From NCBI GenBank assembly GCA_020639315.1, contig JACKGM010000001.1, positions 82,511 through 146,510 of the forward strand: a DNA stretch of 64,000 nt, in the 5' to 3' direction. Within the stretch, counting starts at the first letter, position 1. Every line of letters begins with the position of its first letter. The translations under genes and the position numbers were made by a program. Below the pieces are notes generated by a model. That model worked only from the letters and a program-made list of their open reading frames with translations, was not told the DNA's origin and searched no databases. This DNA comes from Candidatus Nomurabacteria bacterium (lineage in GTDB: Bacteria; Patescibacteriota; Saccharimonadia; JAGOAT01). Positions 14,303 through 50,840 of this stretch are shown piece by piece.

Positions 14303-14313
14303 TGGGAACAGGG

Positions 14314-18588: not shown

Positions 18589-19261
18589 CTGGCTTGACCC
18601 AACGATAACCTTTGCCCCTGATTGTCTCAATATATCTAGGGTGCTTTGAGTCATCACCTAGCACTTTACGGATATTCTTGATATGGGCATCAATCGTTCT
18701 ATCAAAAATATCAGCAAACTGATCTCCCCTGTAAGCCTGATCGATCAAACTCTGACGACTAATGACACTTCCCTGATTACCAATCAAGACTTCTAGGATA
18801 TCGATCTGGATTGCCGTTAGCTCAAGCTTCTCTTGACCCTTGTATAGGCTGAAGCTCCCAGTGTCCAATCTAATATCACCGGACTCAATAATTCTCTGAT
18901 CTTGGTTCCTAGTTAAGAACCTCGCTATCCGTGCTATCAATACCTTGGGATCAAATGGCTTACGAATATAATCGTCAGCTCCAAGCTCAAAACCCCTCAG
19001 CTCATCCTGACTTGGTTGCCTTGCTGTCAAAACAATAATCGGCACCTTAGAGACTCTTCGCATCTCTTGACAAACTTCCCACCCAGATAATTTGGGTAGA
19101 TTAATATCCAAAAGTACCAGATCGATTGTCTGATCAAACTTTTGCAAAGCCTCCAAGCCATCACTAGCCAAGACTACTTGGTATTGATCTCTAATCAAAT
19201 AGTCAGAGACTACCTCCGCAATACCCATTTCATCTTCGGCTAATAGTATCTTTTGTCCCAT
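18581..19261 (-). CDS. OmpR-family response regulator
   Basis: Receiver domain (ILLAEDE...LLDINLP...K) plus winged-helix output domain (TIRGKGYRW). Confidence 0.9.
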   Translation of the reverse strand: MGQKILLAEDEMGIAEVVSDYLIRDQYQVVLASDGLEALQKFDQTIDLVLLDINLPKLSGWEVCQEMRRVSKVPIIVLTARQPSQDELRGFELGADDYIRKPFDPKVLIARIARFLTRNQDQRIIESGDIRLDTGSFSLYKGQEKLELTAIQIDILEVLIGNQGSVISRQSLIDQAYRGDQFADIFDRTIDAHIKNIRKVLGDDSKHPRYIETIRGKGYRWVKPDD

Positions 19262-21544: not shown

Positions 21545-22085
21545 GGTGGGATACTGGATCCCCCGTAATCCTCTATGAGGTTTCGGAGGATGACTAATGC
21601 GCGAGATACTGGATCCCCCGTAAGTTCTCTGAACTTCGGAGGATGACAAGGCAAGGGACGGGTTTCGGAGGATGACTAGACAAGGGACGGGTTTCGGAGG
21701 ATGACAATGCCCTTTCCCGTGTCATCCTCGACTTTTCCGCCCTTCATTTGAAGGAAAAGTTGGGGGATCCAGAACTCTAGATAATGGGTTAGGTGATACA
21801 GTTTAATTTATGTTTATTGTTAGTTTTCTGGATACCCAGAGCAAGCTCTAAGTATGACGAATACAAGTGCAAAATACTGGATCCCCCGTAAACCCTTCGG
21901 GTTTCGGAGGATGACAATGCCCTTTCCGGTGTCATCTTCGGATTTCTCCAAGGGAGAAATACCGGAGATCCAGTATTTGAGTTAGACCCATGGAAGTGCG
22001 AGATACTGGATCCCCCGTAAGTTCTCTGAACTTCGGAGGATGACAAGGCAAGGGACGGGTTTCGGAGGATGACAGGAGAGGGGCG
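21545..22085. repeat. Large intergenic mosaic: about 6 full hairpin units, 3-4 half units, module D
   Basis: Reverse units at 21551-21595, 21607-21651, 21875-21918 and 22003-22047. Forward long-stem variant at 21720-21775. Forward subtype-2 unit at 21930-21978. Half units AAGGGACGGGTTTCGGAGGATGAC three times. Module D at 21778-21870. Confidence 0.85.
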
Positions 22086-25374: not shown

Positions 25375-25955
25375 AAATACTGGATCTCCGGTATTTATCT
25401 TTTAGAGAAATCCGAAGATGACGAAGAAGAGGCGGAAATTTGGTTTGGTGACCCAATTCCTGTCATCCTCCGAAACTGCCCCTGTATTGTCATCCTCCGA
25501 AACCTGCCTCTCTCTTGTCATCCTCCGAAGTTCAGAGAACTTACGGGGATCCAGCATCTTTGCATTTGCATTCGTCATACTCAGAGCTTGCTCTGGGTAT
25601 CCAGAAACAACAACAAACATTAAAAGTAACTGGGTTAATTTAAGTGCATTATCTAGAGTTATGGATCCCCAACTTTTCCTTCAAGTGAAGGGCGGAAAAG
25701 TCGAGGATGACTCGACTCTTGTCATCCTCCGAAACCTGCCTCTCTTGTCTTCCTCCGAAGTTCGGAGAACTTACGGGGGATCCAGTATTCTGGCATTGTG
25801 CATTGTCTTCCTCCGAATTCTCCTTGAGAGAATTACGGGGGATCCAGTATCTCGCATTTCTGGAATCCAATCCAGATACTGGATCTCCGGTATTTCTCTA
25901 AAGAGAAATCCGAAGATGACAGGAGGAGGGTATTATCATCCTCCGAAACTCCGAA
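25375..25955. repeat. Large intergenic mosaic: about 7 full hairpin units, about 4 half units, inverted module D
   Basis: Subtype-2 reverse units at 25377-25423 and 25873-25920. 28-nt-spaced half units 25452-25507 ending in full unit 25508-25555. Forward units at 25745-25790 and 25808-25853. Long-stem variant at 25661-25712. Confidence 0.85.
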
Positions 25956-26001
25956 GGATATACATATGTACATTAATAGAATTGTATGATAGGATAGACA
26001 T

Positions 26002-26292
26002 ATGAGCTATCAAGTAAGTGCTCCGATCAGTACCAAGGTATTTCGCAATGGCAACAGTAGGGCTTTGAGAATTCCTAGCACAACCTTACCTGATATTCAG
26101 CCGGGGGATATAGTAGAAGTAATATTGAGAAAAAAGAAGCAAGCGCGAGCTGGATGGGATCAACAGTTTAAGACAGCGGTTGCGAAGTCTAACAAAGTTG
26201 TCAGTGACCAATACGGTCAGCTCGATAATGACTGGGCAATATCGGATGGGCTAGATAGGGAGGAAGATTGGGGGTTTGTTGATCAAGGTTGA
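26002..26292 (+). CDS. mazE: AbrB/MazE-type antitoxin
   Basis: N-terminal swapped-hairpin motif VFRNGNSRALRIPS. 96 aa. Overlaps the downstream MazF-type gene by 17 nt. Confidence 0.7.
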   Translation: MSYQVSAPISTKVFRNGNSRALRIPSTTLPDIQPGDIVEVILRKKKQARAGWDQQFKTAVAKSNKVVSDQYGQLDNDWAISDGLDREEDWGFVDQG

Positions 26293-26605
26293 AAGAGGAG
26301 CGATCTATATGGCTTATCTCGATCCTGTGGTCGGTAGAGAGCAACGAGGCAGAAGGCCAGTGGTGGTGATTTCACCTAGTGAGATTCAGGATAATCTGGA
26401 TCGAGCAATAGTAGTACCATTTACTACTCAGAAAAAAGACTACCCTACTTATTGGAGTTATAAGCTAAAGGGCAAGACTAGTTACGCTATGCTTGATCAG
26501 ATTAGGACTTTGGATTTGAAACGTTTGCAAAATAAAGTGACTGAGTTGTCATCTGTTGAGCTCGCTAGATTGCTAGCTCGGGTTCAGGAATTGTTTGCTG
26601 TCTAA
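26276..26605 (+). CDS. mazF: MazF/PemK-family mRNA interferase toxin
   Basis: RGAIYMAYLDPVVGREQRGRRPVVVISP and ...MLDQIRTLDLKRL are typical of PemK/MazF. Confidence 0.85.
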   Translation: MLIKVERGAIYMAYLDPVVGREQRGRRPVVVISPSEIQDNLDRAIVVPFTTQKKDYPTYWSYKLKGKTSYAMLDQIRTLDLKRLQNKVTELSSVELARLLARVQELFAV

Positions 26606-26619
26606 TTGGTTGTATTGTG

Positions 26620-26745
26620 CCTTGTCATCCTCCGGTCAAATACTGGATCTCCGGGATTTCTCTAAAGAGAAATCCGAAGATGACAGGAGGAGGGCATTGT
26701 CATCCTCCGAAGTTCGGAGAACTTACGGGGGATCCAGTATTCGGC
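26620..26745. repeat. Hairpin-cassette doublet between the convergent mazF and rpmB genes
   Basis: Reverse subtype-2 unit 26640-26686, then GGAGGAGGGCAT, then forward subtype-1 unit 26698-26742. Confidence 0.85.
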
Positions 26746-28246: not shown

Positions 28247-30475
28247 TTATTTCACCCACCACCCAAAGGTCGAACCTTGACCATTACTGACTGGGGAGGA
28301 GAAAAAGATTCCTCCTCCGTGATCTTCTGTCACTCTCTTGACTAGATAGATACCTAGACCTGTGCCATCACTTCTAGTTCTTTGGGCATTGTCTGCTCGA
28401 TAGAATTTAGAGAAGAGTTTGGCTTGTTTGTCAGGAGGTACACCGATACCAGTGTCTGTCACCTGAAAGACTGGGTAGAGGACACTCTCTAGGTCCCCAC
28501 TGAAGTCTGGCTTGGAAGCGATGTCTGAGGATTGGATGATTGCTTTTAATTCGCTTACGCTTAGAAGCTTAAGAGTTAGCTTGATTGTTCCCTCTTGGGT
28601 ATAGTAGATAGCATTATCAATTAGATTCATCACTGCTTGACGGATTTTGGCTTTGTCTAAAGCTTGAGGGGGGATGTCTTCAAGGTCTGTTACTAGCCTT
28701 AACCCCTTGTCCTCAATACTAGGGATTAGATTCTCTAGCTCTTGCTTGATTAGTTCCTTGAGGTCTACTGCTTCTCTCTGGATGAAGAATCGATCTTGGG
28801 AGATTCTTGAGACATTGAGTAGGTCGTTGATGGTAGAATCCATATTGCCGACAGTGGTCATAATCCTTCTAGCAGCCATTGTTTGATCTGAGGTAGCCTT
28901 ACCTAGCTCTCCGGTGATAAAGAGGTCACTATAGCCCCTAATCGTAGTGATTGGGGTCTTTAGTTGATGAGATGCCATTGAGAGGAATTCATCCTTGGCT
29001 TTGTCTAGAGCTCTTAGGTTCTTGTTGGCAGTGCGGAGTTTTTCGGTAGCAGACTTAACTTTATGCTGGAGAGTGACATTGAAGTCTTCGATTTTAGCTA
29101 CTGCTAGGGCATTGTCTAGGGCGATTGCTAAATCATTTGAAACAATTGAGAGAGTGGAGTAATCTAAGCTATTGTAGATGTCACCACTTCTCTTTCCGCC
29201 TAAAAGTAAGTAGCCATTGAGTTTTTTGTTGTTTACTAGGGGGAAGATCATACTGAGGCTATTTTTCTGCATGAAAAACTTTTTGTCGCTCTCAGTCAAC
29301 TCGTCATAGACCGCAGGTTCTTTACCGAAGAGTTGGGGTACTTGACTAATCTCACCATATGATCTGAATAGTCCCTTCTTGCCTGATTTCATAAAGTTTT
29401 GGTTGTTTCTAAAGTATTCTTGACCATCATCGTCTAAGACTAGTATGTTACCTCTCTCGGTTTTGATCGTAGTGTAGATCAGGGCTAGAGTCTTACTAGC
29501 GATTGGGGCAAGCTTGTAATTGGAAGAATAGACATCTCCTAGCTTAGTCAATAGAGCTTGAGCATCATAACGATTTCTAAAGAATAGTTGATCGGTCAAT
29601 CTCTCAAAGAACTTTCTTAGGATTGGGAAGGTCAGGGCTAGGAGGGTGGCTAGGAGGATGTAGGCAACCAACTTGGCTACAGTAAATGTATTGTCGTCCT
29701 CCAGTACTAGTCCAATTCCAAAAAATAAAACAGCACTATAAAGCAAGACTAAGCTAAAGAGAGTAACGGTATAGAAAAAGGATCTCGCTAAAGTTGCCCG
29801 GATATCAAAAAGCTGTCTTTTTGATATCGCAAAAGCATTAAAAGTCGAAAATATGATCAGGAGCAAAGGAGCAGAACGAATACTCCAGCTGATACCAAAC
29901 ACTACTGGCATAATAATATTGGTAGTTACCCCTAGGTTGATAATAACGATTAACCCGATGGCAATCAGCTTGAGCTGGCTTTTCTGATAAATATCTACTT
30001 GCTGATAGGCAACTCGAAAAGCCAAAGCGGTATAAAATACCAAAATCATGAAGCTCACTGCATACAAGGGGAACAAATCACCCGTGATCGGCTTACTTGG
30101 AGCTGTCGTAATATCTACTCCACTAATTATCTGCTCTGATACTAGCGTCACGAAGGCCATAATGCCTGCCATCGAGATCACAAGATAATGCTGATACTTG
30201 CTCATAGGCTTACGCATGAAGACTGTTGCTAGCCCAAAGACTGATCCGACGATCATATAGCTAAAGCTGTAACCAAGCCGATGCCCAAACAGCTTGAGGT
30301 CATAGCTAGCACCATAATCACTAATATATGTCCCGATCAACCAAACGATTGAGCTAAGATTGGACAAAGCATACCACTGAATCGCTCGGGCATGATAATT
30401 GCGCAAAAGAATTACTAGCCCGACAATCCCGACAGTAGTGATCGCGAGTCCGCTAAGCAAAGTATAGTTATCCAT
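28247..30475 (-). CDS. Sensor histidine kinase HK1 (polytopic ~7-8 TM sensor, GAF-like, HisKA, HATPase_c)
   Basis: H-box SHQLKTPITTIRGY, N-box NLIDNAIYYT, G-boxes DTGIGVP / GTGLGIYLV. Start placed at ATG 30475 (MDNYTLLSG); GTG 30520 is an alternative. The C-terminal ~470 aa are identical to HK3. Confidence 0.85.
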   Translation of the reverse strand: MDNYTLLSGLAITTVGIVGLVILLRNYHARAIQWYALSNLSSIVWLIGTYISDYGASYDLKLFGHRLGYSFSYMIVGSVFGLATVFMRKPMSKYQHYLVISMAGIMAFVTLVSEQIISGVDITTAPSKPITGDLFPLYAVSFMILVFYTALAFRVAYQQVDIYQKSQLKLIAIGLIVIINLGVTTNIIMPVVFGISWSIRSAPLLLIIFSTFNAFAISKRQLFDIRATLARSFFYTVTLFSLVLLYSAVLFFGIGLVLEDDNTFTVAKLVAYILLATLLALTFPILRKFFERLTDQLFFRNRYDAQALLTKLGDVYSSNYKLAPIASKTLALIYTTIKTERGNILVLDDDGQEYFRNNQNFMKSGKKGLFRSYGEISQVPQLFGKEPAVYDELTESDKKFFMQKNSLSMIFPLVNNKKLNGYLLLGGKRSGDIYNSLDYSTLSIVSNDLAIALDNALAVAKIEDFNVTLQHKVKSATEKLRTANKNLRALDKAKDEFLSMASHQLKTPITTIRGYSDLFITGELGKATSDQTMAARRIMTTVGNMDSTINDLLNVSRISQDRFFIQREAVDLKELIKQELENLIPSIEDKGLRLVTDLEDIPPQALDKAKIRQAVMNLIDNAIYYTQEGTIKLTLKLLSVSELKAIIQSSDIASKPDFSGDLESVLYPVFQVTDTGIGVPPDKQAKLFSKFYRADNAQRTRSDGTGLGIYLVKRVTEDHGGGIFFSSPVSNGQGSTFGWWVK
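28255..29662. repeat. 1408-bp direct repeat, copy 1 (3' part of HK1)
   Basis: Base for base the same, as far as I can compare by eye, as 32611-34018 (constant offset 4356). The antisense ORFs 28674-28886 and 33030-33242 are identical. Confidence 0.85.
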
Positions 30476-32618
30476 CACTTCTCCTAGTATATGGTATCCA
30501 AACTCCGAAGACCGAACCACCTTCTGGACTGATAGGTGATCTAAAAATCACATTGCCATAATGGATTCTAGCGATTTCTCGTACTAGGTATATACCTAGC
30601 CCATTACCATCTGGTCTGACTGTCTTGGCATTGCTGGCTCGGTAAAATTTAGTAAATAGTTGCTTTTGTTTGCTCTCAGGTACCCCAATCCCAGTATCAG
30701 TGACATAAAAAGCTAGGTATTTACGACGAGGAGCGATTGCTTCTCCACCTAGAGACCCCAGCTGACGAAGTTGGCTACCAGTCAAGACTTTTGCTGATAC
30801 CCTGATCTGACCTCGGTCAGTATACTGAATTGCATTATCTATCAGATTGATTACTACTTGCCTCAGTTTGCCACCATCAGCAAAGATCTTGATTGGCTCT
30901 GGCAAATCAAGTATTAGATCCAAACCTTGCTTGATTGAAACTTTCCGATAGTGATACTCTTCCTCGACCATAGCACCAAAATCAAAGCTAGCTTTACTAA
31001 TCACCAATCTACCTTGAGCCAATCTAGAAGTAGCGAGCAGGTCCTCCAATAACTGGTTCATGTTTTGACCAGCTTGATTGATCTGACTGAGGATCTGCTT
31101 TTGCTCTGAGGTAATATGACCAAACTCTCCGTCAACCAACATCTCACTATACCCCCTGATCGTAGTGAGTGGAGTTCTAAGCTGATGTGATGCGATCGAG
31201 ATAAACTCATCCTTACTTTTGTCCAAGGCCTTGAGCTTTTCTAGGGTATCTTTCAGACGGTAATTAACCTTGGCATTATCTAGGGCAACCGCCAAATCTC
31301 CAGCTACTATTTCAATCGTTTGATAGTCATTTTCGGTATATATATCGCGACTCACTTTTTGACCAAGCACAATATGTCCGACTAGTTTACCCTTAAGAAT
31401 CATTGGAAAAATCAGTTCTGCCCCCTGACTCTTTAATTGATGCAAGGTAGCAGTATCCAAAATATGATCGACAAATATCACCTCATCCTTCAGGTAATGC
31501 CAATTCTTGGTATTAAAAATCTTATAATTAGTTGCATGGCTAAATGCAATCCGATTATGCTCATAGACAATTATCTGCAGATTCTCAAGTCCCATCTGGT
31601 CTACTATGACCTTTGCAGTATCCTTGATCATGGCTTCAAGCTTGAGATCTCTTGCTAAAATCCTACTGACTTCTCCAATCAATTGACCAGGATAGTAGTG
31701 ATAATGGTAAAACCACTTATAAGTATTTTTTTCAAAAAATCCAAGCATCGGCTGAAATAGTACGGCCAAGATAATAATGATCGGAATGAAGGCTAAGCGC
31801 TCAGGAGTAGTCAGCTTATGATCAAGACCAATTAAGCTTCCTAGATAATAACTTGCAAATAAACTGTAGATAATTGCTAATACAATGACTGCTACGCTAA
31901 AAGCCAAAGACCTACTAAAGATTAGTTTGAGATCGAATATCTTGTTTCTGAGGATTACATAAGAGTTGACAATCACCATCCCCGCCATTACAAATAATCC
32001 GATTTGACTGACCCAACCGTCGTTGATTAGGCTTGGCAAGACCAAGTTGGTCAAGACTACCAGGCTAATCCCGGTAGCATAAGTGGTCAGCATTACCTTG
32101 ATCTGAATCTTTTTGACATTTTCGACAGTATCCATTGCCCTGAGTAAATTTCTAATCGAAGGCAAAAGGACTGCAAACAAAATCACCACAAAGCTCCAAT
32201 AGTATCTACCCTTTTGGTCTACCAAAAACCCATCTTGATTCTGATAGCCTGCGACTACCTGATCAGTCAAGAGAATAGCCGAGTAAACCAATCCAAAAAT
32301 CCAAAGTTTGATCTTGCCAAGCCGGCTAAAGGGTTTGATTTCTCCCAAGTAAGCCCGACTCATTCCATAAAAAGCAATGATTGATAAAAACCCAAAAACA
32401 AATGTCAGGCGATTAGCAAAAATCGTGATCTGATCGCTAATAAACAAGCTTGCTACCAATGTAGCAACCTGCCAAAGCCCTCCAGTCAAAGCAAAGCCTA
32501 GAAACCAATGTGAAAGTCTACGATTCATCCCCCGCTTGAATACTAATCCACCAAAAACAAAGAGGATTAAAACTGGGATAATCGAAGTGATGACTATCTG
32601 ATTCACTTGACCCACCAC
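30468..32618 (-). CDS. Sensor histidine kinase HK2 (same architecture, diverged paralogue)
   Basis: H-box SHQLRTPLTTIRGY, NLIDNAIQYT, DTGIGVP, GNGLGIYLV. An alternative start GTG 32606 would give a GTGA overlap with the HK3 stop. Confidence 0.85.
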   Translation of the reverse strand: MVGQVNQIVITSIIPVLILFVFGGLVFKRGMNRRLSHWFLGFALTGGLWQVATLVASLFISDQITIFANRLTFVFGFLSIIAFYGMSRAYLGEIKPFSRLGKIKLWIFGLVYSAILLTDQVVAGYQNQDGFLVDQKGRYYWSFVVILFAVLLPSIRNLLRAMDTVENVKKIQIKVMLTTYATGISLVVLTNLVLPSLINDGWVSQIGLFVMAGMVIVNSYVILRNKIFDLKLIFSRSLAFSVAVIVLAIIYSLFASYYLGSLIGLDHKLTTPERLAFIPIIIILAVLFQPMLGFFEKNTYKWFYHYHYYPGQLIGEVSRILARDLKLEAMIKDTAKVIVDQMGLENLQIIVYEHNRIAFSHATNYKIFNTKNWHYLKDEVIFVDHILDTATLHQLKSQGAELIFPMILKGKLVGHIVLGQKVSRDIYTENDYQTIEIVAGDLAVALDNAKVNYRLKDTLEKLKALDKSKDEFISIASHQLRTPLTTIRGYSEMLVDGEFGHITSEQKQILSQINQAGQNMNQLLEDLLATSRLAQGRLVISKASFDFGAMVEEEYHYRKVSIKQGLDLILDLPEPIKIFADGGKLRQVVINLIDNAIQYTDRGQIRVSAKVLTGSQLRQLGSLGGEAIAPRRKYLAFYVTDTGIGVPESKQKQLFTKFYRASNAKTVRPDGNGLGIYLVREIARIHYGNVIFRSPISPEGGSVFGVWIPYTRRSDG

Positions 32619-34834
32619 CCAAAGGTCGAACCTTGACCATTACTGACTGGGGAGGAGAAAAAGATTCCTCCTCCGTGATCTTCTGTCACTCTCTTGACTA
32701 GATAGATACCTAGACCTGTGCCATCACTTCTAGTTCTTTGGGCATTGTCTGCTCGATAGAATTTAGAGAAGAGTTTGGCTTGTTTGTCAGGAGGTACACC
32801 GATACCAGTGTCTGTCACCTGAAAGACTGGGTAGAGGACACTCTCTAGGTCCCCACTGAAGTCTGGCTTGGAAGCGATGTCTGAGGATTGGATGATTGCT
32901 TTTAATTCGCTTACGCTTAGAAGCTTAAGAGTTAGCTTGATTGTTCCCTCTTGGGTATAGTAGATAGCATTATCAATTAGATTCATCACTGCTTGACGGA
33001 TTTTGGCTTTGTCTAAAGCTTGAGGGGGGATGTCTTCAAGGTCTGTTACTAGCCTTAACCCCTTGTCCTCAATACTAGGGATTAGATTCTCTAGCTCTTG
33101 CTTGATTAGTTCCTTGAGGTCTACTGCTTCTCTCTGGATGAAGAATCGATCTTGGGAGATTCTTGAGACATTGAGTAGGTCGTTGATGGTAGAATCCATA
33201 TTGCCGACAGTGGTCATAATCCTTCTAGCAGCCATTGTTTGATCTGAGGTAGCCTTACCTAGCTCTCCGGTGATAAAGAGGTCACTATAGCCCCTAATCG
33301 TAGTGATTGGGGTCTTTAGTTGATGAGATGCCATTGAGAGGAATTCATCCTTGGCTTTGTCTAGAGCTCTTAGGTTCTTGTTGGCAGTGCGGAGTTTTTC
33401 GGTAGCAGACTTAACTTTATGCTGGAGAGTGACATTGAAGTCTTCGATTTTAGCTACTGCTAGGGCATTGTCTAGGGCGATTGCTAAATCATTTGAAACA
33501 ATTGAGAGAGTGGAGTAATCTAAGCTATTGTAGATGTCACCACTTCTCTTTCCGCCTAAAAGTAAGTAGCCATTGAGTTTTTTGTTGTTTACTAGGGGGA
33601 AGATCATACTGAGGCTATTTTTCTGCATGAAAAACTTTTTGTCGCTCTCAGTCAACTCGTCATAGACCGCAGGTTCTTTACCGAAGAGTTGGGGTACTTG
33701 ACTAATCTCACCATATGATCTGAATAGTCCCTTCTTGCCTGATTTCATAAAGTTTTGGTTGTTTCTAAAGTATTCTTGACCATCATCGTCTAAGACTAGT
33801 ATGTTACCTCTCTCGGTTTTGATCGTAGTGTAGATCAGGGCTAGAGTCTTACTAGCGATTGGGGCAAGCTTGTAATTGGAAGAATAGACATCTCCTAGCT
33901 TAGTCAATAGAGCTTGAGCATCATAACGATTTCTAAAGAATAGTTGATCGGTCAATCTCTCAAAGAACTTTCTTAGGATTGGGAAGGTCAGGGCTAGGAG
34001 GGTGGCTAGGAGGATGTAAGTTGCCTGCTGGATTGGAGAAATCTCCCGACCGAGTGGGAATATCCAGAGAGTTGCCCCATAGCCTATGACTATGAATAGG
34101 ATTGCAATTAGGGTGAGAGTGAGGTAGTAGAATAGTGCCCGGACGGTCCATTTGTTGATGTCAAATAGCTTATATTTAGCAATGCTATAACTTGTACTAC
34201 CAACAAGCACAATAGAAAATAGTGGACCAAGTTTAGATAAAGCCCAGTTGCCGGTGATGATTGGTATTATGCCATTTGTAATAGACGCAAAAAAAGCAAA
34301 AATAACCGTTCCGATGATTATATATTTAATCTGATTTTTCTTATCATCATATATCGTATCCAAAGACCTATACCCATTAATAAGGTTTCTAAAAAAAGCT
34401 ATTAAGAAAACCACCAAAGTACCTATATAAACTATATATAGATTATTAAACTCTGGATGGAAGCCAGTATTATCCACGCTTGCTCCAATAATCATAAGGT
34501 CAGAGAAAGCAAGGATACAGGCTAGTATCGAAGAGGTTAAAATAATAACCCTATCATACCTAGATAGAACATTATATATAAATACTTTTGAAAAACTCCA
34601 AATCAATAGTACTAAAAAGTACGCCGAAAAAAAAGCTACTCTGTTAAAAAAATACTTTAACTCAAAGGTGCTAGCAAAGTCTGTATAATAGTTACTGATT
34701 ATCCACACACTAGTAGCTATCGAAAAAATAAAATATATAATATAGTTTATTCCTTTTTGATTCCTAATATATGTAAAGTAACCCAACAGAGAGTTTAGTA
34801 GGGATATCACTATAACCAATAAGAATAACACCAT
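32603..34834 (-). CDS. Sensor histidine kinase HK3 (distinct polytopic sensor; cytoplasmic module identical to HK1)
   Basis: N-terminal ~270 aa are unrelated in sequence to HK1 but equally polytopic. From YILLATLLALTFPILRKFF onward identical to HK1. Confidence 0.85.
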   Translation of the reverse strand: MVLFLLVIVISLLNSLLGYFTYIRNQKGINYIIYFIFSIATSVWIISNYYTDFASTFELKYFFNRVAFFSAYFLVLLIWSFSKVFIYNVLSRYDRVIILTSSILACILAFSDLMIIGASVDNTGFHPEFNNLYIVYIGTLVVFLIAFFRNLINGYRSLDTIYDDKKNQIKYIIIGTVIFAFFASITNGIIPIITGNWALSKLGPLFSIVLVGSTSYSIAKYKLFDINKWTVRALFYYLTLTLIAILFIVIGYGATLWIFPLGREISPIQQATYILLATLLALTFPILRKFFERLTDQLFFRNRYDAQALLTKLGDVYSSNYKLAPIASKTLALIYTTIKTERGNILVLDDDGQEYFRNNQNFMKSGKKGLFRSYGEISQVPQLFGKEPAVYDELTESDKKFFMQKNSLSMIFPLVNNKKLNGYLLLGGKRSGDIYNSLDYSTLSIVSNDLAIALDNALAVAKIEDFNVTLQHKVKSATEKLRTANKNLRALDKAKDEFLSMASHQLKTPITTIRGYSDLFITGELGKATSDQTMAARRIMTTVGNMDSTINDLLNVSRISQDRFFIQREAVDLKELIKQELENLIPSIEDKGLRLVTDLEDIPPQALDKAKIRQAVMNLIDNAIYYTQEGTIKLTLKLLSVSELKAIIQSSDIASKPDFSGDLESVLYPVFQVTDTGIGVPPDKQAKLFSKFYRADNAQRTRSDGTGLGIYLVKRVTEDHGGGIFFSSPVSNGQGSTFGWWVK
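32611..34018. repeat. 1408-bp direct repeat, copy 2 (3' part of HK3)
   Basis: See 28255-29662. The last three codons and stop differ just outside the repeat (GTG AAA TAA versus GTC AAG TGA). Confidence 0.85.
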
Positions 34835-34880
34835 TATAATCTTACTAAAACACTAATATATTAACAAGAATATGAATATA

Positions 34881-35762
34881 TTAAAAAGGAGCTTCTTTAC
34901 CCATATAAAATATTTCTTGAATACCAATTCCCTGAGCTAATAATCTGTATAGTCCATCTTCAGTATGTCTATTCTTAAAGTCTTCCCTGAGTCTATTAGG
35001 GACACCAAACACTGGTGTACTCCTTGGGGAATCTAGATATGGTTTGGCTTCTACGCCAGGATATGTATCAAAAAATAAACCAAACCCTTCTAGATGCTTA
35101 AGCACCCTATCGTCTAGTATAGCAAACCATAGATCTACATTATTGGCTTTTGAGAACTCATTTAAACCATAAAACAACCCTAATATAATATAATCTGAAA
35201 TATCTTCTTCTGATCTTCTATCTTCTCTTCTGAATCCTTTTCTGATAGCTATTGTAGCAATATCTAAACCCACTACACCCATGTCTGTTAAGTCTTTTGA
35301 AGATCTTACTTCTCGACCATTTACCATAACATTCTCTCTCCCCCAACCTCTATTATCATTATCTATGGGGTCTAAAAAAACATCGTCTAAGCTAATCATT
35401 CCTGTCTCCGTATTCTCGATTAATCTCATCGTTCCAACAGGAGTATTGTTTCTTCTATCTACTATTAAAATAAAGTGGCTTGAATCTTCATATTTTTTAT
35501 ATGTATCTCGCATCATCTCGGCTGTGTTGCTTGGAAACCTACCTTCAAATGCTTCACGTTCTATAGTTCTCGCAATATTACTTACTGGATCATTATTTTT
35601 GCTATGTATTAATACAAATGGTTGCTTATCACCTCCTAGCCAATTGGGCGACCCTAGTAATTCACTCAGTAGACTTATAATTTCTGAGTCATTAAGAGCA
35701 TAATTAGGATTACTATCAACTATACTGTATTCGCCAGTATAGCCTTTATTATCAGGAAACAT
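34881..35762 (-). CDS. GNAT-superfamily N-acyltransferase-like protein (FeeM / autoinducer-synthase-fold-like, tentative)
   Basis: 293 aa. The pattern EREAF...Y.KYEDSSHFILIVDRRNNTPVGTMRLIENT...ISLDDVF and a later DIATIAIRKGFR block resemble the N-acyl amino acid synthase / LuxI-like acyltransferase layout. No exact motif confirmed. Confidence 0.35.
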   Translation of the reverse strand: MFPDNKGYTGEYSIVDSNPNYALNDSEIISLLSELLGSPNWLGGDKQPFVLIHSKNNDPVSNIARTIEREAFEGRFPSNTAEMMRDTYKKYEDSSHFILIVDRRNNTPVGTMRLIENTETGMISLDDVFLDPIDNDNRGWGRENVMVNGREVRSSKDLTDMGVVGLDIATIAIRKGFRREDRRSEEDISDYIILGLFYGLNEFSKANNVDLWFAILDDRVLKHLEGFGLFFDTYPGVEAKPYLDSPRSTPVFGVPNRLREDFKNRHTEDGLYRLLAQGIGIQEIFYMGKEAPF

Positions 35763-35770
35763 AATAATTC

Positions 35771-36112
35771 TTAAAACTCTTTAATCTCAATAGAACTAGT
35801 TTCAAAATAATCAGCGGTAAACCTTGTTGCTTCCTCAATATCAAACTTCTTACAAGTATATATATCTACGCTAAAAAATAGTCTTGGTCGCTCCCAGGCA
35901 TAAAAATGTGCTCCCGAAGTTTCCCAATGGATCCATCCAGCCCAGCCAAACTTATCGGATCTATGAGTTACAGGACTTAATAATGTGTGCATTTTAAGAA
36001 CATCTGAGAGTTCTGATAGATAATCCTTGATCTCTCGATCTGAAATCGGCTTTAATGGATAACCCTCTATCACTAACCTTTGTCTATAAATATTGGGTGC
36101 TAAATCTTTCAT
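35771..36112 (-). CDS. S-adenosylmethionine decarboxylase-like (SpeH/PF02675-type) small protein
   Basis: 113 aa. GWAGWIHWETSGAHFYAWERPRLFFSVDIYTCKKFDIEEA aligns by eye with T. maritima SpeH (recalled from memory) [40 protein letters not shown]. The processing-site context reads ETS instead of ES. Confidence 0.55.
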   Translation of the reverse strand: MKDLAPNIYRQRLVIEGYPLKPISDREIKDYLSELSDVLKMHTLLSPVTHRSDKFGWAGWIHWETSGAHFYAWERPRLFFSVDIYTCKKFDIEEATRFTADYFETSSIEIKEF

Positions 36113-36224
36113 ACTGACTATATTGTAAATAATATTTAACTCTTAGAACACTACAACATTTTTATTATACCATAATATAATAAACCTTTCTCCGGCCAGA
36201 AGCTAGCTCCGGCCGGATTGTTGA

Positions 36225-37307
36225 CTACCTACCTAATATTAGTGGTATACTTTTAACTTTCTCCAAAATAGGGAATGGTAATAGTATAACTGCACTCAAT
36301 ATCTGTCCTAGTAATACCAAAGTTAAGACTGCAATATCCCCCTGTCCAAAACCAGACTCAATACCAAGCATTGGATCAGCAGAATCAATTAAATAAACAA
36401 AGTTTGGCTTAATCAGATATTGTGCCAAAATCACTGCTGTCCCTAGAACCGGGACATTGTGTACAATGAACCACATTCTACCCTGACCCCTAGTCATGCC
36501 CATGTCTCGCGTTGTATTAATGATCGGCTTTAGCCAAGTCGACATTGTCAACATGGTTAATACATAGAATGGCAACATTACAAAAGCGATAATTCCCGCC
36601 ATTGTCATCACCAGACCCCCCACGCTATCTTCCCCATATCCCCTGTTGTTATCCATGAAATTCTCATGAGCTATAACAGTATAACCTGGTATAGTGGTTA
36701 CTAGGGCTAAATCAGGGTCAAGAGTTAGTCCAAGACTGTAACCTTTTCCTGGTTCCGATATTCCTGTAAAATCCTGCATAGTTACGTAGACTCCTGAGCC
36801 ACCTGCGCCAGCAGTACCCTTTACAAAGCCAGACACTTCTAACTCAATAGATGAAACTTCAAGTTGACCTCCTATTTCCACATGACAACTATCCTTGATA
36901 GTTTCATCTATAAGAACTTGTCCTGGATTTGGCCAATTACCTTGTGTCACCTTGGGGAAAAGGTTACTTTGACTGGCAAAAATTATAATGGGTTGAGAAC
37001 ACTGCATGTCCACTGTAGAGGCAGTAGAATACTTTCTAGATACCCCTATCCAACCATCCGGGAGATCAAACATTACTTCTGGATCTTGAACCATATTATT
37101 AGATCCGTCTTGAACAAGCCAAAAGGCTTGTTCAAGCCCAGGAAGCGACATTAGATTATCCCCACTCTCCTTAACGGCTGTACGAATATTTAGCACTACC
37201 GGCAACATCGCAATCACCAGTGCTATCATAAACGCAAGAATAAAAAAAGAAAACTTCTTACTCCACCAATGACGAACCGTTGAAATAATTGCGTACTTCA
37301 GGTGCAT
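36225..37307 (-). CDS. FtsX/MacB-like ABC-transporter permease, no adjacent ATPase
   Basis: N-terminal TM (LKYAIISTVRHWWSKKFSFFILAF...), ~200-aa extracytoplasmic domain, three C-terminal TM helices with a TTRDMGMTRGQG loop (equivalent to the R.EIG.lrA.G motif). Start moved to ATG 37307. Confidence 0.55.
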   Translation of the reverse strand: MHLKYAIISTVRHWWSKKFSFFILAFMIALVIAMLPVVLNIRTAVKESGDNLMSLPGLEQAFWLVQDGSNNMVQDPEVMFDLPDGWIGVSRKYSTASTVDMQCSQPIIIFASQSNLFPKVTQGNWPNPGQVLIDETIKDSCHVEIGGQLEVSSIELEVSGFVKGTAGAGGSGVYVTMQDFTGISEPGKGYSLGLTLDPDLALVTTIPGYTVIAHENFMDNNRGYGEDSVGGLVMTMAGIIAFVMLPFYVLTMLTMSTWLKPIINTTRDMGMTRGQGRMWFIVHNVPVLGTAVILAQYLIKPNFVYLIDSADPMLGIESGFGQGDIAVLTLVLLGQILSAVILLPFPILEKVKSIPLILGR

Positions 37308-37603
37308 TTTGTACCTTTCTGATATTGGTAGTATGTACAATCAACACCCCCATACTACCATAATATGGGACTAATAGGAAATCTGAGAGTAAATGGGATA
37401 AGGCTAGAGCCAACTGGCCACTAATACTTAACCGGCTTAGTATTCATTTTGAAGGGAGAATTGGAATGTAAATTGTGTGAGCTAATCAGTGGGAGTTTAC
37501 ACAATGGGGTTGACAGTCTGAGTTTGGTCTCTGATATACCCTAGACTAAGACTCCAACAGTGAGGTGCTTGACTAACTTAGTCCACCACTTTACGATTAG
37601 ACT

Positions 37604-37854
37604 ATGTCGGACCTAACTGTCCACAAGGCAAAAACCCATTTATCGAAAATCCTTCACCAAGTAGACCAAGGAAAAGAGTTCACTATCTACCGAGGTGACC
37701 AGCCAGTAGCCTTACAAACCTCGATCCCTAAACACAAAAAAAACAGCGTTCACCCGGTCTATGGCAAGACCCAGACAGTCCTATTAGCCCCGATCAACAG
37801 CTAGAGAGTCCTGACAATGCTGATACTATCATAGCTGAAATGTTCAATTCATGA
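37604..37854 (+). pseudogene. Phd/YefM-type antitoxin, frameshifted in an A8 run
   Basis: N-terminus MSDLTVHKAKTHLSKILHQVDQGKEFTIYRGDQPVA. Adding one A to the A8 run 37736-37743 restores ...GLWQDPDSP...AEMFNS*, ending in TGA 37852-37854, which forms ATGA with the toxin start. Confidence 0.6.
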
Positions 37855-38239
37855 ACAAGTACTTATTGGATACTCATATTCTGCTCTGATGGCTCTATGA
37901 TAGCAATAAACTTTCCAAAGATCATAGAGGGATTATTACCGACCCGATCAACAATGTTTTTTCTCAGCTATTAATATCTGGGAGATACTCTTAAGCTACA
38001 AGCTTGGTAAGCTGAAATTAACCGACTCAAATATTGATTCTTTAGCCAATCTTAGCTCCCTAACAGACCTACAAGAACTTAGCCTATCTACCAGCCACTT
38101 AGTGACCTTCCAGGAGATTGATTTCAAATATAATGACCCTTTTGACAACATCCTAATCTCCCAAGCAATAGCAGAAGATCTGACCCTACTAACCGTAGAC
38201 CGGAATATTCTTGACCAAGGTCTAGCCAAGACCTGCTAG
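37851..38239 (+). pseudogene. vapC: PIN-domain VapC-type toxin, inactivated (nonsense plus frameshift)
   Basis: MNKYLLDTHILL*WLYDS (TGA at 37887-37889, where family members have Trp). Frameshift in the T6 run 37957-37962. The shifted frame reads FFSAINIWEILLSYKLGKLKL...DPFDNILISQAIAEDLTLLTVDRNIL, the typical VapC C-terminus. Confidence 0.7.
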
Positions 38240-38249
38240 CTAGGACCAA

Positions 38250-38412
38250 TAACCCTGTTGCCATATAAACTTGCGAGGTCAAAGCTGATGATTTTTATTC
38301 CAGAATACCAAAACACGACAAAGCATAACAGGAGTTACGCTGCGAAGTGTTTTGCTATTCTGGGGCAAAAATGGCAGTTTTGAAGCCGTGAGGTTATATG
38401 GCAAAAGGGTTA
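38250..38412. mobile_element. MITE-like element, family C (copy C2)
   Basis: TAACCCTGTTGCCATATAAAC ... TATATGGCAAAAGGGTTA. Inverted relative to C1. Confidence 0.75.
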
Positions 38413-38436
38413 ATGTCTAGATCGGGAATTTAGTGG

Positions 38437-38598
38437 TATAGCAAGCTCAAAACAAAACCGGACAATTTGAGCTGTACTATAGAGAACTAGAAAGGTAGTT
38501 CTTCTTAAGAGCCATATTCATAGATATGGTGAGTAAGAAAACTAGCTTTATAGACTCTAGAGTGGGGTTAAAAGTCTGGTTTTGTTTTTAGCTTGCTA
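38437..38598. mobile_element. Family-B MITE inserted into a fragment of a family-A arm
   Basis: The flanks GGAATTTAGTGGTA and CAAGTCAGTGTGTTGGGTCTGTAAC correspond to the family-A arm GGAATTTAGTGGTAAGTCAGTGTGTTAGGTCTATAG. Confidence 0.7.
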
Positions 38599-38602
38599 CA
38601 AG

Positions 38603-40861
38603 TCAGTGTGTTGGGTCTGTAACTACATACATGATGGTTAATGCCAATCTAATACCCCGGTCAAAGCCATCGACTCGGCTTGGGTTATCTTTATATGTCT
38701 CTTGATGTAATCTTATAAGATCGTAAATATACCTAGACAATACTGGGTCGCTATCTACTAACCTAGATATCTCCATATAGTCATAGCTCAATATAACTGA
38801 TAACTTTTCCATATTTACCTGATCAATATCTAAATGTTCTAATCCTACCTCTGACCTGCCAAAATAATGACTAGACAAATGAGCTTCACTATGCAACCTA
38901 AGGTCGGCTGACTTTTCTAATGCAAGCTTCTCAAGGGCGGGACTTAAAGCGTGGTGTTTTCGCAAAAAACAAAATATTTCCATCGCCCCAAGGTAGCCCA
39001 CTTTAAACCCCTCTATGTATTGTTTTATATCCTTAGAATCTATTGGTAAATCCAGCCTACCAAGCATCTTTAAAAACTTACTCTCCCTCTCCAATATTTC
39101 CCCCAAAAATCGGTATTTACCAAATAAAGCTATTGTACTCTCACTAAGTCTTATCTCGTCAGGTCTAGTTAAATAATCATTGGCTAGTAGGTTACTATCA
39201 GACGAATCATAGTGATGGTCATAGAGCTCCATTAGCAGCTTAGGTTCTCGAGTCAAATCTACTATAACCCTTTCTAGCCCCCGGAATAATCCAGGGTCAC
39301 TTTCATCAGAACAAGTCACATTGATTTCAAGCCGTTTACCTGTAATATTTAGTAGTATCCTCAACCCAGGTGTGCTATCGATATCAAGCAAGCAAAAGAT
39401 TACAAATTTACTTTTCTTTGGCTCAATTTCAGATATAAGATGAACCAAATGCTCTAGCATCGCACCCAACTGTCTCCTATCTATAATATCAGGAATCGAA
39501 TTATCAAACTCAATAGCCACATTATCCCAATGATATTCACTATTAATCTTACCCTTACCTTGATCTATAACCTCTAAAATTCTACCCCCTAGATCAATAA
39601 CCTCAAACTCTGACCCGTGTACAAGTCCTTGTCCTAATTCCTGACATAAACCACCCCTAAGCTCTTCTATATATAATCCCAAAAAGTTAACCCCTAGATC
39701 AAACCCTGTTTCGAGTGCACCCAACGAACTCTCAACCTCTAGTTTAGCCTGTGTTCCTAGTACCCACTTGGCCAAATCAGTATACTTTGTGAGACTTAAT
39801 TGGCTCAATGTGACTTGATAGCTGTTCAAAATAAAGTCTTCCCTGTTGACCAACTCGCTCACCTCCTTTATCTTCTCAGGATTGAGCAACCAGCCAAACC
39901 CGGGATACTCATTACTTTTTGTGCGTTCTGTACTTAATTCTTCGGCATTAAGCAATAAAGCCATTGTCGCTACGCCCAAAGTAAAGCCGTGAGTAATACT
40001 CAATTCTTCTAATTCAGGACTCTCTATCTCACAGCAACTTTCATAGTAACTTTTCCAGACCTCAAACCATCCGCTTGCATATATTCCATGTCCTATTTCC
40101 CAGATAGTCTCGATGCTAGATGGTTCAAGGTTAAACCCAAGGGCGCATCTACTCAAATCATGCGAAATCCCTGAATCTTCGGGAGGCAAGCCTGAAGTAC
40201 CCGAGGTTTCGCCTAAGTAGGGTTTATCCTTAGATAACCTATCTACACTTCTTGCTTGTATTGTTTTCTGTTTATCTTGCAAATCGATCAAAACCTTCAA
40301 TAAGCAAAAGGCTAGATCAACCCCTTGTAAGTATGACAGTAAATTCTCTTCCTTAGTGCCTAGAATACTGACTCCGGTTTGAGCCTCAAACGCATCTTTG
40401 ATAGCTCTTGCTATATAAGGAAATCTAGAGCTAAGATCCATTGAGTTTAGTACTTCGCTGAAGCTTAGATCCATATCTTTCCCACCTGATAAGCCTAACT
40501 CTGCCCTCAAACTACCACAATCCATAATAATCTGCTCAACCGATAGCCCCTTATCCTCTGCTAAGATATAGGACATCAACCCAAGCCCAAATCTATAACC
40601 ACTACCGACCAACCCATCTGAGTCTTCTCCTAACAAATCATTACTAAGCTGTTCCCACAGCTTACCCCAGCCTGATCCTAGTAATTCTTCACTCATTGAA
40701 TAAATATCTTGATAGACCTTTGGAGTAAACTCAGCTTCAGACTTTGAATTTGGGTACTCTTCCATCTTGCTACTCAACCTATATCCACTGAAACCTAGAC
40801 CCCAATGCATTGTTAAAAAAATCAGATATTGATTCTCTAAAATCATAGAATTGTTGAACAA
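38603..40861 (-). CDS. Large acidic repeat protein (752 aa), unassigned family, paralogue of 41249-43567 and 43592-44275
   Basis: Recurring module: GSGYRFGLGLMSYIL, THGFTLGVATMALLL, ETGFDLGVNFLGLYI, IEGFKVGYLGAMEIF, VDGFDRGIRLALTIMYVV (C-terminal). No TM or signal peptide. The start is uncertain (TTG 40861, or ATG 40846/40810/40765). Confidence 0.65.
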   Translation of the reverse strand: MFNNSMILENQYLIFLTMHWGLGFSGYRLSSKMEEYPNSKSEAEFTPKVYQDIYSMSEELLGSGWGKLWEQLSNDLLGEDSDGLVGSGYRFGLGLMSYILAEDKGLSVEQIIMDCGSLRAELGLSGGKDMDLSFSEVLNSMDLSSRFPYIARAIKDAFEAQTGVSILGTKEENLLSYLQGVDLAFCLLKVLIDLQDKQKTIQARSVDRLSKDKPYLGETSGTSGLPPEDSGISHDLSRCALGFNLEPSSIETIWEIGHGIYASGWFEVWKSYYESCCEIESPELEELSITHGFTLGVATMALLLNAEELSTERTKSNEYPGFGWLLNPEKIKEVSELVNREDFILNSYQVTLSQLSLTKYTDLAKWVLGTQAKLEVESSLGALETGFDLGVNFLGLYIEELRGGLCQELGQGLVHGSEFEVIDLGGRILEVIDQGKGKINSEYHWDNVAIEFDNSIPDIIDRRQLGAMLEHLVHLISEIEPKKSKFVIFCLLDIDSTPGLRILLNITGKRLEINVTCSDESDPGLFRGLERVIVDLTREPKLLMELYDHHYDSSDSNLLANDYLTRPDEIRLSESTIALFGKYRFLGEILERESKFLKMLGRLDLPIDSKDIKQYIEGFKVGYLGAMEIFCFLRKHHALSPALEKLALEKSADLRLHSEAHLSSHYFGRSEVGLEHLDIDQVNMEKLSVILSYDYMEISRLVDSDPVLSRYIYDLIRLHQETYKDNPSRVDGFDRGIRLALTIMYVVTDPTH

Positions 40862-41094: not shown

Positions 41095-41240
41095 AAATAC
41101 TGGATCCCCCGTAAGTTCTCCGAACTTCGGAGGATGACAATGCCCTCTGTATGTCATCTTCCAAATTCCTGTAGGAAATTATGGGAGATCCAGCATTTGA
41201 ATTGAAGCCTCAGAAATGCAAAATACTGGGTCCTGACTAT
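41095..41240. repeat. Hairpin-cassette doublet plus a partial unit
   Basis: Reverse unit 41098-41140, then ATGCCCTCTGTA, then forward subtype-2 unit 41150-41195. Partial reverse unit near 41224. Confidence 0.8.
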
Positions 41241-50634: not shown

Positions 50635-50840
50635 TCCGAATACTGGATCCCCCGTAAGTTCTCCGAACTTCGGAGGATGACAAGAGTTGTGTCATCTTCA
50701 GATGATAACAATGCCCCCTCCTCCTGTCATCTTCGGATTACCCGGAGGGGAATACCGGAGATCCAGTATTTGAGTTGAGAACCATAAATACTAAATACTG
50801 GATCCCCCGTAAGTTCTCTGAACTTCGGAGGATGACAATA
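50635..50840. repeat. Hairpin cassettes between the giant gene's stop and the dinB start
   Basis: Reverse units at 50640-50683 and 50793-50836. Forward subtype-2 unit at 50728-50775. Confidence 0.8.

Follow-up and report, generated by a model that had tools for sequence, protein, structure and literature searches.

In the CqsA/CqsS and LuxM/LuxN systems of Vibrio and the LqsA/LqsS system of Legionella, the synthase gene lies beside the gene of a polytopic membrane histidine-kinase receptor. Here we analyse a locus of comparable outline in Candidatus Nomurabacteria bacterium (Saccharimonadia), in which the genes of a small protein resembling S-adenosylmethionine decarboxylase (AdoMetDC) and of an acyltransferase-like protein are followed by three genes of membrane sensor kinases. 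The window, that is, the whole stretch of DNA that was analysed, comprises 64,000 nt (assembly GCA_020639315.1, contig JACKGM010000001.1, positions 82,511-146,510). We found that the two enzyme-like proteins and a membrane kinase form a unit that recurs across related genomes. Tentatively, and with somewhat less than an even chance of being right, we suggest that the enzyme pair makes a lipophilic signal of the N-acyl amine type, which would be sensed by the adjacent membrane receptors. How the ultra-small epibionts of the Candidate Phyla Radiation (CPR), Saccharibacteria included, perceive their hosts and neighbours is largely unknown, and the cassette is a candidate for such communication.

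A part of this arrangement has a precedent in CPR genomes. For LuxI-like genes of the CPR, Bernard et al. (2020, mSystems, PMC7567580) have computationally inferred such a link of synthase and kinase. Their Table S4 contains syntenies of the type 'LuxI homolog / putative sensory kinase', 18 in number, of which Saccharibacteria account for two, and weak PF00765 matches (~1e-7) are reported there for hypothetical proteins of Saccharibacteria near sensor kinases. The acyltransferase-like family described below gives the same weak PF00765, FeeM and Acetyltransf_5 signals, and judged by these profile matches it very probably overlaps with the CPR syntenies of that study.

Three gene types form a conserved unit

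An earlier note on this DNA, based on reading the sequence by eye, had described six consecutive minus-strand genes with short gaps as a putative circuit for the synthesis, export and sensing of a small molecule. All six open reading frames (ORFs) are present at the expected places:

28247-30520, minus strand: HK1, the third polytopic sensor histidine kinase (HK; HisKA and HATPase_c)
30468-32618, minus strand: HK2, a paralogous polytopic sensor kinase (HisKA, HATPase_c, weak GAF)
32603-34834, minus strand: HK3, a polytopic sensor histidine kinase (HisKA and HATPase_c)
34881-35762, minus strand: 293-aa GNAT-superfamily protein, predicted FeeM/LuxI-like fold class, second gene of the pair (AlphaFold and Foldseek)
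35771-36112, minus strand: 113-aa putative AdoMetDC-fold protein ('dc-like'), first gene of the pair (Pfam AdoMet_dc)
36225-37340, minus strand: FtsX/MacB-like protein with four transmembrane (TM) segments, neighbour only (TTG start; alternative ATG at 37307)

The gaps are indeed short, with 112 nt between the FtsX-like and dc-like genes, 8 nt between the dc-like and acyltransferase-like genes and another 46 nt to the kinases, whose neighbouring ORFs overlap by 16 nt and by up to 53 nt. A promoter/terminator consensus scan of 26.5-39 kb gave no signal above shuffled expectation. To place the locus among its relatives, the 113-aa family was used as a probe on one genome per species, which gave 404 loci; the best 80 of the 404 were examined with 10-kb flanks. 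Neighbour comparisons cover 85 related loci in all, and the conservation table of the 113-aa family was made from 85 sequences. In these data the conserved unit consists of three gene types (dc-like, acyltransferase-like and membrane kinase), not of six genes.

The acyltransferase-like gene, located with a family hidden Markov model (HMM), lies directly downstream of the dc-like gene (gap -3 to +26 nt) in ~64 of the 80 loci, and at least one further locus holds a divergent acyltransferase subfamily that the HMM misses. Paired loci span Saccharibacteria, other Patescibacteria, Actinomycetota, Acidimicrobiia and Burkholderiales. Approached from the acyltransferase side, the picture is the same: members 26-30% identical to the window protein sit between an AdoMet_dc gene and a histidine kinase, and on a contig with 72% guanine plus cytosine (GC) the pair is found between a Na:Ala symporter and a GGDEF-EAL gene. 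Moreover, the two genes occur as natural fusions. P0122 (409 aa), encoded on two independent contigs (L090, 5001-6230; L091, 967-2196), joins a complete dc-like domain (E 6e-58) through a linker to an acyltransferase-like domain, and P0130 is a fragment of a second, different fusion of this kind. In L090, a PlsC-type acyltransferase and a receiver-only regulator lie upstream of the fused gene and a HisKA_7TM kinase lies downstream. Adjacency and fusion argue that the dc-like and acyltransferase-like proteins work together.

The kinase belongs to the same unit in one part of the tree. Counting only loci whose downstream sequence extends for at least 3.5 kb, a kinase with a homologous membrane domain follows the pair in 27 of the 32 low-GC loci (Saccharibacteria and other Patescibacteria) versus 3 of the 31 high-GC loci. 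The enzyme pair with its kinases is thus a real unit, as the earlier note had supposed, and its recurrence across related genomes disposes of the possibility, raised in the same note, that the genes would be syntenic in no relative.

In some loci the dc-like gene has another partner. In three Planctomycetaceae loci (L028, L042, L057), an enzyme of the arginine deiminase (ADI)/amidinotransferase superfamily (377 aa), ~87 nt past the dc-like gene, and an amino-acid permease replace the acyltransferase; in L020 and L021 an LPG_synthase_C-like enzyme faces the dc-like gene in its place. By family, these partners would act on amines or amino acids, which indirectly supports an amine-forming chemistry. 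We also considered an amino-acid transporter as a conserved neighbour and rejected it: the Na:Ala symporter is confined to L005, and the permease to the three Planctomycetaceae loci. Carriers of the pair among culturable Actinomycetota are Blastococcus, Modestobacter, Geodermatophilus and Cryobacterium, where it lies beside cyclic di-GMP enzymes; in such tractable organisms the chemistry could be solved and then transferred to the unculturable ones.

Several loci are unusual in their taxonomy or copy number. L034 and L063 come from one metagenome-assembled genome (MAG) of Actinomycetes (JAHECS01) with two dc-like copies on different contigs, one with the acyltransferase and a GGDEF-EAL gene and the other without them. 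L062 (labelled 'Nevskiaceae', 563-kb contig) and L011 ('Candidatus Binatia') agree with Saccharibacteria loci in housekeeping gene order, have 50-70% protein identity to them and 48-50% GC; the labels are probably wrong and the contigs mislabelled Saccharibacteria. The 110-kb contig L083 of Mycolicibacterium sphagni ATCC 33027 (GC 0.53-0.64) carries the full three-gene cassette including a Saccharibacteria-type kinase, and its flanking genes match no Saccharibacteria locus. Either the cassette was transferred horizontally as a whole, or the isolate assembly contains a foreign contig.

The AdoMetDC-like protein

By-eye similarity of the 113-aa protein to AdoMetDC is confirmed by the Pfam profile AdoMet_dc (PF02675), which it matches with E 4e-10 and 40.4 bits against a gathering score of 25. 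Alignment with hhalign to a profile of 120 class-1b AdoMetDCs indicates full-length homology (probability 85%, E 6.7e-6). The score against the TIGR03330 equivalog, at 15.9 bits, is below the cutoff of 75.65, and PDB sequence searches with the protein and with the family profile reached no AdoMetDC and returned RRM matches only, which are spurious. Relatives number at least 2,915 clusters. The family is extremely conserved, with a median identity of 66% across genomes and 65-70% between the Saccharibacteria and Actinomycetota groups.

Invariant positions in the 85 sequences include R10-Q11-R12, E16, H62, W63, S66, G67, H69, Y71, D83 and C87, and the central stretch reads H62-W63-E64-(T/S/N)65-S66-G67-A68-H69-F70-Y71-A72-W73-(E/D)74-x-P76, where H62, W63, S66, G67, H69, Y71 and P76 are invariant. 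The AdoMetDC of T. maritima requires S63 (the precursor of the pyruvoyl group), H68 and C83 (PMC10407285), and in the canonical enzymes E62-S63-H64...H68-T69-W70-P71-E72 is invariant in 121 sequences. The invariant C87 is the clear equivalent of Cys83. Around the serine, two registers compete. That of hhalign, which has low local confidence, places Ala68 (83 of 85 sequences) on Ser63, H69 on H64 and P76 on P71. An alternative gapless register places G56, G59 and W73 on G53, G56 and W70 and the invariant S66 on S63; the residue before S66 is then T/S/N, where the canonical enzymes have E. Judged by profile and residue conservation, this is a protein of the AdoMetDC fold with enzyme-like invariant polar residues, and perhaps a self-processing one.

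The acyltransferase-like protein

The 293-aa protein (MCA9349536.1) carries the public annotation 'hypothetical protein' and belongs to an unnamed family, for which an exhaustive HMMER search gave 351 representatives at 50% identity. Its matches to curated profiles are weak. Against Autoind_synth (PF00765) it scores 17.4 bits (E 3.4e-3; gathering threshold 24 bits), and only 3 of the 80 family members match this profile at E<0.01. Against FeeM (PF21926) it scores 15.1 bits (E 0.021; gathering threshold 27 bits), with matches in 4 of 80 members (best E 4e-6), and the Acetyltransf_5 match (E 0.03) is likewise sub-threshold. The closest curated sequence profile is TIGR03694, matched by 50 of the 80 members (best E 9e-12); the window protein aligns with parts of it only (E 1e-10, 41.3 bits, cutoff 111.95).

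Structure prediction is more informative. An AlphaFold model from an 80-sequence alignment reached pLDDT 92.6 and replaced a model from a 3-sequence alignment (pLDDT 53). The top PDB match of the new model in Foldseek is the N-acyl amino acid synthase FeeM (2g0b; E 9e-7, TM-score 0.73-0.75 normalised to FeeM), followed by the acyl-homoserine lactone (AHL) synthases EsaI and LasI; also matched are generic GNATs, PaiA (1tiq), the GNAT toxins AtaT, TacT and KacT, and 7byy. On this model, the assignment of the predicted fold to the FeeM/LuxI type is firm. The earlier guess of a LuxI/FeeM fold was therefore correct at the level of fold, with no membership in a curated family, and the structure search places the protein among the acyltransferases and not outside them, the outcome against which the earlier note had warned. 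By eye, the family consensus after 'WDxATxAV' reads 'xxxYRxxxxxxxxSxxLYR' and contains no Q/RxxGxG/A acetyl-CoA motif, the pyrophosphate-binding element that follows strand beta-4 in acetyl-CoA-dependent GNATs. The conserved N-terminal residues of LuxI-type AHL synthases are, in LasI/LuxI numbering, R24, F28, W34, D45, D48, R70, E101 and R104. A PDB search with the acyltransferase profile returned LasI alone (E 1.4), and in this weak alignment F72/F27, R113/R70 and D167/E101 are paired, with E68 at R24 and T170 at R104.

Both assignments bear on a possible role in polyamine metabolism, where the 113-aa protein would be a working AdoMetDC/SpeH or a derived arginine/ornithine decarboxylase and the GNAT protein a SpeG/PaiA-like polyamine N-acetyltransferase. 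The above-threshold AdoMet_dc match and the presence of PaiA among the Foldseek matches agree with such a role, AdoMetDC homologues have been neofunctionalised to arginine and ornithine decarboxylases, CPR included (PMC10407285), and the guanidino-group enzyme and amino-acid permease of the Planctomycetaceae loci hint at arginine-type substrates. However, neither the conserved neighbours of the 80 loci nor the window ORFs scanned include speE, hss or speY. Therefore, the 113-aa protein is not the ordinary spermidine-pathway SpeH, with speE nearby, for which the earlier note had left room. It is also far from the canonical class-1b enzymes, as the TIGR03330 score and the PDB profile searches indicate, and His68 is not conserved. 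Its GNAT partner has its best fold match in the FeeM/LuxI type and is devoid of the acetyl-CoA motif, and the systematic linkage to membrane signalling proteins would be left unexplained. We consider a polyamine pathway very unlikely.

The genes of a GNAT toxin and a small partner are also arranged in this order, the small gene first, with start/stop overlap, and the larger GNAT gene after it, and AtaT, TacT, KacT and 7byy are among the structural matches. The 293-aa protein would then acylate aminoacyl-tRNA or, as a protein-acylating regulator, the kinase or regulator, with the small protein as its modulator. Antitoxins are fast-evolving, but no component of the cassette is more conserved than the small protein (66% median identity across phyla), which has an enzyme fold with many invariant polar residues. 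Fusions would not be expected of a toxin and its antitoxin, the 293-aa protein exceeds GNAT toxins by ~100 aa and has no acetyl-CoA motif, and the cassette is chromosomal and syntenic across Saccharibacteria. Hence this explanation is extremely improbable.

Sensor kinases and other signalling partners

The description of HK1-3 as three polytopic sensor kinases proved accurate. All score above threshold for HisKA (50-65 bits) and HATPase_c (~70 bits), have a weak GAF-like middle region and contain about 8-9 hydrophobic segments within their first 300 aa. HisKA_7TM (PF16927) is matched by HK2 at 27.1 bits (cutoff 28.6) and confidently by the kinases at the same position in L086 and L090. Homologues of the HK1-3 membrane domains begin 810-960 nt past the dc-like stop, directly after the acyltransferase gene, in at least 32 loci; the HK3 membrane domain matches the kinase directly after the pair in 32 loci, with E down to 1e-95. 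In most Saccharibacteria a single kinase comes after the pair, and HK3 is its positional orthologue. This genome has three such kinases, where relatives mostly have one.

An exact-run computation revealed a perfect direct repeat within the kinase genes, which the earlier note had missed:

28254-29662: copy 1, 1,409 bp, GAF-like, HisKA and HATPase parts of HK1
32610-34018: copy 2, 1,409 bp, in HK3

Its upstream border coincides with the junction of the membrane and cytoplasmic domains, so that HK1 and HK3 have 469 identical cytoplasmic residues and membrane domains that are 28% identical. Against HK1 and HK3, HK2 has 19-21% identity in its membrane domain and ~40% over the rest of the protein. 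From these identities, the three kinases can be read as a local expansion of one ancestral kinase, and the set looks like sensor diversification on a common output. The repeat itself reflects either an artefact of assembly or a gene conversion or duplication of very recent date.

Rates of divergence differ across the cassette. In the same 27 genomes, median pairwise identity is 66% for the dc-like protein, 54% for the kinase catalytic core, 34% for the acyltransferase-like protein and 35% for the kinase membrane domain. A constrained first enzyme combined with a fast-evolving acyltransferase and sensor is the pattern that would be expected if the acyl group, or signal, and its receptor diversify together.

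Clustering of neighbouring ORFs pointed to further partners. A receiver-only response regulator of ~125 aa lies within 5 kb in 41 loci; it is divergent and at most 800 nt upstream in 26 of 43 low-GC loci versus 0 of 33 high-GC loci. The one candidate for a cognate regulator in the window, of the OmpR type (18581-19261), was rejected, as it is paired with a kinase of its own (17497-18657). In 23 high-GC loci a polytopic membrane protein with GGDEF-EAL domains (~780 aa) immediately adjoins the pair; these loci belong to Geodermatophilaceae, Acidimicrobiales, Microbacteriaceae, Bifidobacteriaceae, Actinomyces and one Burkholderiales MAG. With a kinase in low-GC and a GGDEF-EAL protein in high-GC genomes, the pair is therefore connected to membrane signalling proteins by two unrelated routes. 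We looked for a sensor domain shared by the two and discarded the idea (hmmsearch found nothing; hhalign probability 0.35%). The argument therefore rests on recurrent linkage to membrane signal transducers and makes no appeal to a shared sensor.

The permease-like neighbour and the segment upstream

The FtsX/MacB-like permease was the weakest family call of the earlier note. Its predicted topology fits (TM1, a loop of ~180 aa and three further TM segments), but MacB_PCD is matched at 20.7 bits, below the threshold of 27, there is no match to the FtsX Pfam family (PF02687), and no PDB relative of the protein was found. The observation that the permease comes without an ATPase is correct for the window ORFs of at least 100 aa, among which the scan found no ATP-binding cassette (ABC) ATPase. 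As a part of the conserved module the gene was rejected, since phmmer against all ORFs of the 85 loci returned no homologue.

The original proposal was a full six-gene operon, with export of the pair's product by the permease and sensing by the three kinases. Six co-directional genes with short gaps, the MacB/FtsX-type topology and the weak MacB_PCD match are in line with it. We nevertheless give it little credence and hold it for quite improbable: the FtsX-like protein is without a homologue in the 85 loci, the closest relative has transposases at its position (relatives carry a receiver-only regulator or transposases there), the scanned window ORFs offer no ABC ATPase, and a decayed toxin-antitoxin remnant just upstream marks a variable segment. 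Moreover, a lipophilic amide would not necessarily need a transporter. The FtsX-like gene is probably a lineage-specific neighbour and neither a dedicated exporter nor part of the conserved module. The part of the proposed circuit that stands is the recurrent unit of enzyme pair and kinases; the exporter does not.

Upstream of the FtsX-like gene lies an ORF-poor gap (37341-38602) with a 66-aa Phd/YefM-like ORF (37604-37804, plus strand) and a PIN/VapC-like fragment (38102-38239, plus strand), apparently a decayed toxin-antitoxin pair when the translations are read by eye. Two minus-strand ORFs of 752 and 772 aa (38603-40861 and 41249-43567) follow. They match no Pfam family, and phmmer against all ORFs of the 85 loci found no homologue of either; they seem to occupy a variable segment between a conserved tRNA-synthetase/NTP-transferase block and the cassette.

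A possible signal and its alternatives

The gene unit is conserved, folds have been assigned to its products, the two enzymes are fused in nature and the wiring to signalling proteins is lineage-specific. From this we infer the chemistry, the role of the product as a signal and that of the kinases as its receptors, along the following route. The AdoMetDC-fold protein would act on S-adenosylmethionine (SAM) or an amino acid, most plausibly decarboxylating it to expose a primary amine. The FeeM/LuxI-fold enzyme would N-acylate this amine from an acyl-carrier or acyl-CoA thioester, and the resulting N-acyl amine would partition into or across membranes. There the multi-pass membrane domain of a HisKA_7TM-type kinase might detect it, and the kinase would, in most relatives, phosphorylate the receiver-only regulator encoded divergently upstream. 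In Actinomycetota, the GGDEF-EAL enzyme would serve as the receptor in place of the kinase. Three paralogues with differing membrane domains and two identical transmitters suggest that in the present genome several related ligands feed into one output.

A number of observations weigh against this proposal. The 293-aa protein falls below the curated thresholds of Autoind_synth, FeeM and TIGR03694. In the dc-like protein, the position of His68 is taken by Tyr71 or Trp73 in either register, with the invariant His69 nearby at a different position; the pyruvoyl-forming Ser63 faces Ala68 in the profile alignment, and Ser66 fits only in the gapless alternative. The receiver-only regulator usual in relatives was not found beside the cassette in this window, and hmmsearch and hhalign detected no homology between the membrane domain of the kinase and that of the GGDEF-EAL protein. 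The genome is metagenome-assembled, and the perfect 1.4-kb repeat could have arisen artificially in assembly. Many Saccharibacteria are considered to be without de novo fatty-acid synthesis, hence the acyl donor is a problem. Finally, regulators would be just as likely to lie beside the pair if all they did was control a biosynthetic operon.

The last point leads to an envelope lipid or a cell-surface modification as the function of the cassette. The pair would then make a structural N-acyl amine or aminolipid (OlsB-like), or modify an envelope precursor, and the regulators would control or respond to the state of the envelope. Regulators are often encoded beside the pathways under their control. 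Weak matches to Acetyltransf_5, the family of OlsB-type N-acyltransferases, occur in 21 of 80 family members; the Saccharibacteria cassette lies beside peptidoglycan genes (a Mur ligase and a MurI/MurL-type racemase or epimerase); a PlsC/OlsA-family acyltransferase is directly upstream of the fused version; and L020 and L021 swap the acyltransferase for the LPG_synthase_C-like enzyme, a lipid-modifying type. However, a PlsC-like gene accompanies the cassette in only 1 of the 80 loci, and on this count we rejected an OlsB/OlsA-type aminolipid operon as the general context. Neither the window nor the actinobacterial loci show the Mur synteny, which looks like lineage gene order. Parallel fast divergence of acyltransferase and sensor and the expansion to three kinases fit diversification of a signal and its receptor better than a housekeeping lipid. 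An envelope function is possible but, in our estimate, somewhat unlikely. Should the product be a structural lipid, the cassette would still point to an envelope pathway so far unrecognised, in bacteria that are considered to rely on host lipids.

The signal reading can be carried further. The known hosts of Saccharibacteria are Actinomycetota, and the small proteins of the two groups share 65-70% identity; therefore, the molecule could be a shared chemical language of epibiont and host. It would represent a new class of signal, an N-acylated amine with decarboxylated SAM or a decarboxylated amino acid as its source, read by HisKA_7TM kinases in Saccharibacteria and by GGDEF-EAL proteins in Actinomycetota; with its three divergent sensors, the present genome might pick up more than one variant of it. 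We regard this extension as distinctly unlikely. If the proposed chemistry is right, the dc-like family would be a new functional offshoot of the AdoMetDC fold beyond the arginine and ornithine decarboxylases.

Other features of the window

A dispersed intergenic repeat with the core TGTCATCCTCCGAA, placed within a short inverted repeat (TCCTCCGAA..TTCGGAGGA), occurs in 44 copies versus 0.46 expected by chance. Its sites are at 438-1500, 13644-15121, 21582-22074, 25461-25947, 26623-26711, 41126-41165, 48536-48624 and 50669-50837, often in small tandem arrays with a period of 28-29 or 57-85 nt, and it looks like an element of the REP (repetitive extragenic palindromic) or MITE (miniature inverted-repeat transposable element) kind. 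The 195-aa ORF at 25418-26005 is a spurious translation of this repeat. Within 26002-26605, the gene of a MazF/PemK toxin (26276-26605, Pfam E 1e-23) looks intact, and a 96-aa ORF that overlaps it on the upstream side is likely its antitoxin. Towards the end of the window runs a minus-strand ORF of 4,379 aa (50846-63985) with FG-GAP, DUF11, SdrD_B and SpaA-type repeats. It resembles a surface adhesin, possibly with a part in epibiont attachment, and includes 5.7 copies of a 162-nt tandem repeat (59050-59980).

Comparison with known systems

Each enzyme of the pair departs from its closest described relatives. Like the class 1b AdoMetDCs (SpeD/SpeH; SpeDA, SpeDC), the dc-like protein is of similar size, shows full-length homology and has conserved equivalents of E11, H47, G53, G56, D79, T82 and C83. 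Unlike in these enzymes, the E-S-H...H-T-W-P-E signature is not intact, with His68 changed to Tyr/Trp, the gene has no polyamine genes nearby and it is coupled to a GNAT gene. The family is also far more conserved than is usual for SpeD homologues (PMC10407285). The 293-aa protein shares with FeeM (2g0b) and the LuxI-type EsaI (1kzf) and LasI (1ro5) a GNAT core without the acetyl-CoA P-loop-like motif. However, its sequence is only 10-13% identical to theirs and exceeds them by ~100 residues, having an extension at the N-terminus and an insertion near residues 120-165, and R24 and R104 of LuxI are apparently replaced by E68 and T170, as read from a weak alignment. It differs from the PEP-CTERM/exosortase acyltransferases of TIGR03694 in context, which here consists of the dc-like gene and a signalling protein; no PEP-CTERM/exosortase genes were found among the neighbours clustered and scanned.

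The earlier note knew of no such circuit in organisms of this type. For the LuxI-like/kinase synteny in CPR this needs correction, as it was reported by Bernard et al. (PMC7567580). Their syntenies come without the AdoMetDC-like partner, the fusions, the receiver-only regulator and the actinobacterial GGDEF-EAL version, and neither 'decarboxylase' nor 'S-adenosylmethionine' occurs in the text or supplements examined. In the literature searched, the AdoMetDC-fold partner, the fusions, the regulator, the GGDEF-EAL version and the breadth of distribution appear to be undescribed.

As a whole, the cassette invites comparison with the Vibrio and Legionella systems named at the outset. The synthase would be of another kind, neither a pyridoxal-phosphate (PLP) enzyme of the CqsA type nor LuxM, and has an AdoMetDC-fold protein as its partner; the kinases are of the non-hybrid type and the regulator is receiver-only, and the partner in Actinomycetota is a GGDEF-EAL protein. 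Parallel divergence of synthase and receptor is a feature for which we also liken the cassette to LuxI/LuxR-type systems. In common with CqsA/CqsS, LuxM/LuxN and LqsA/LqsS, a putative synthase adjoins a multi-pass membrane kinase, the synthase and sensor domain evolve fast, and the signal would be expected to be lipophilic, with its ligand site in the membrane domain.

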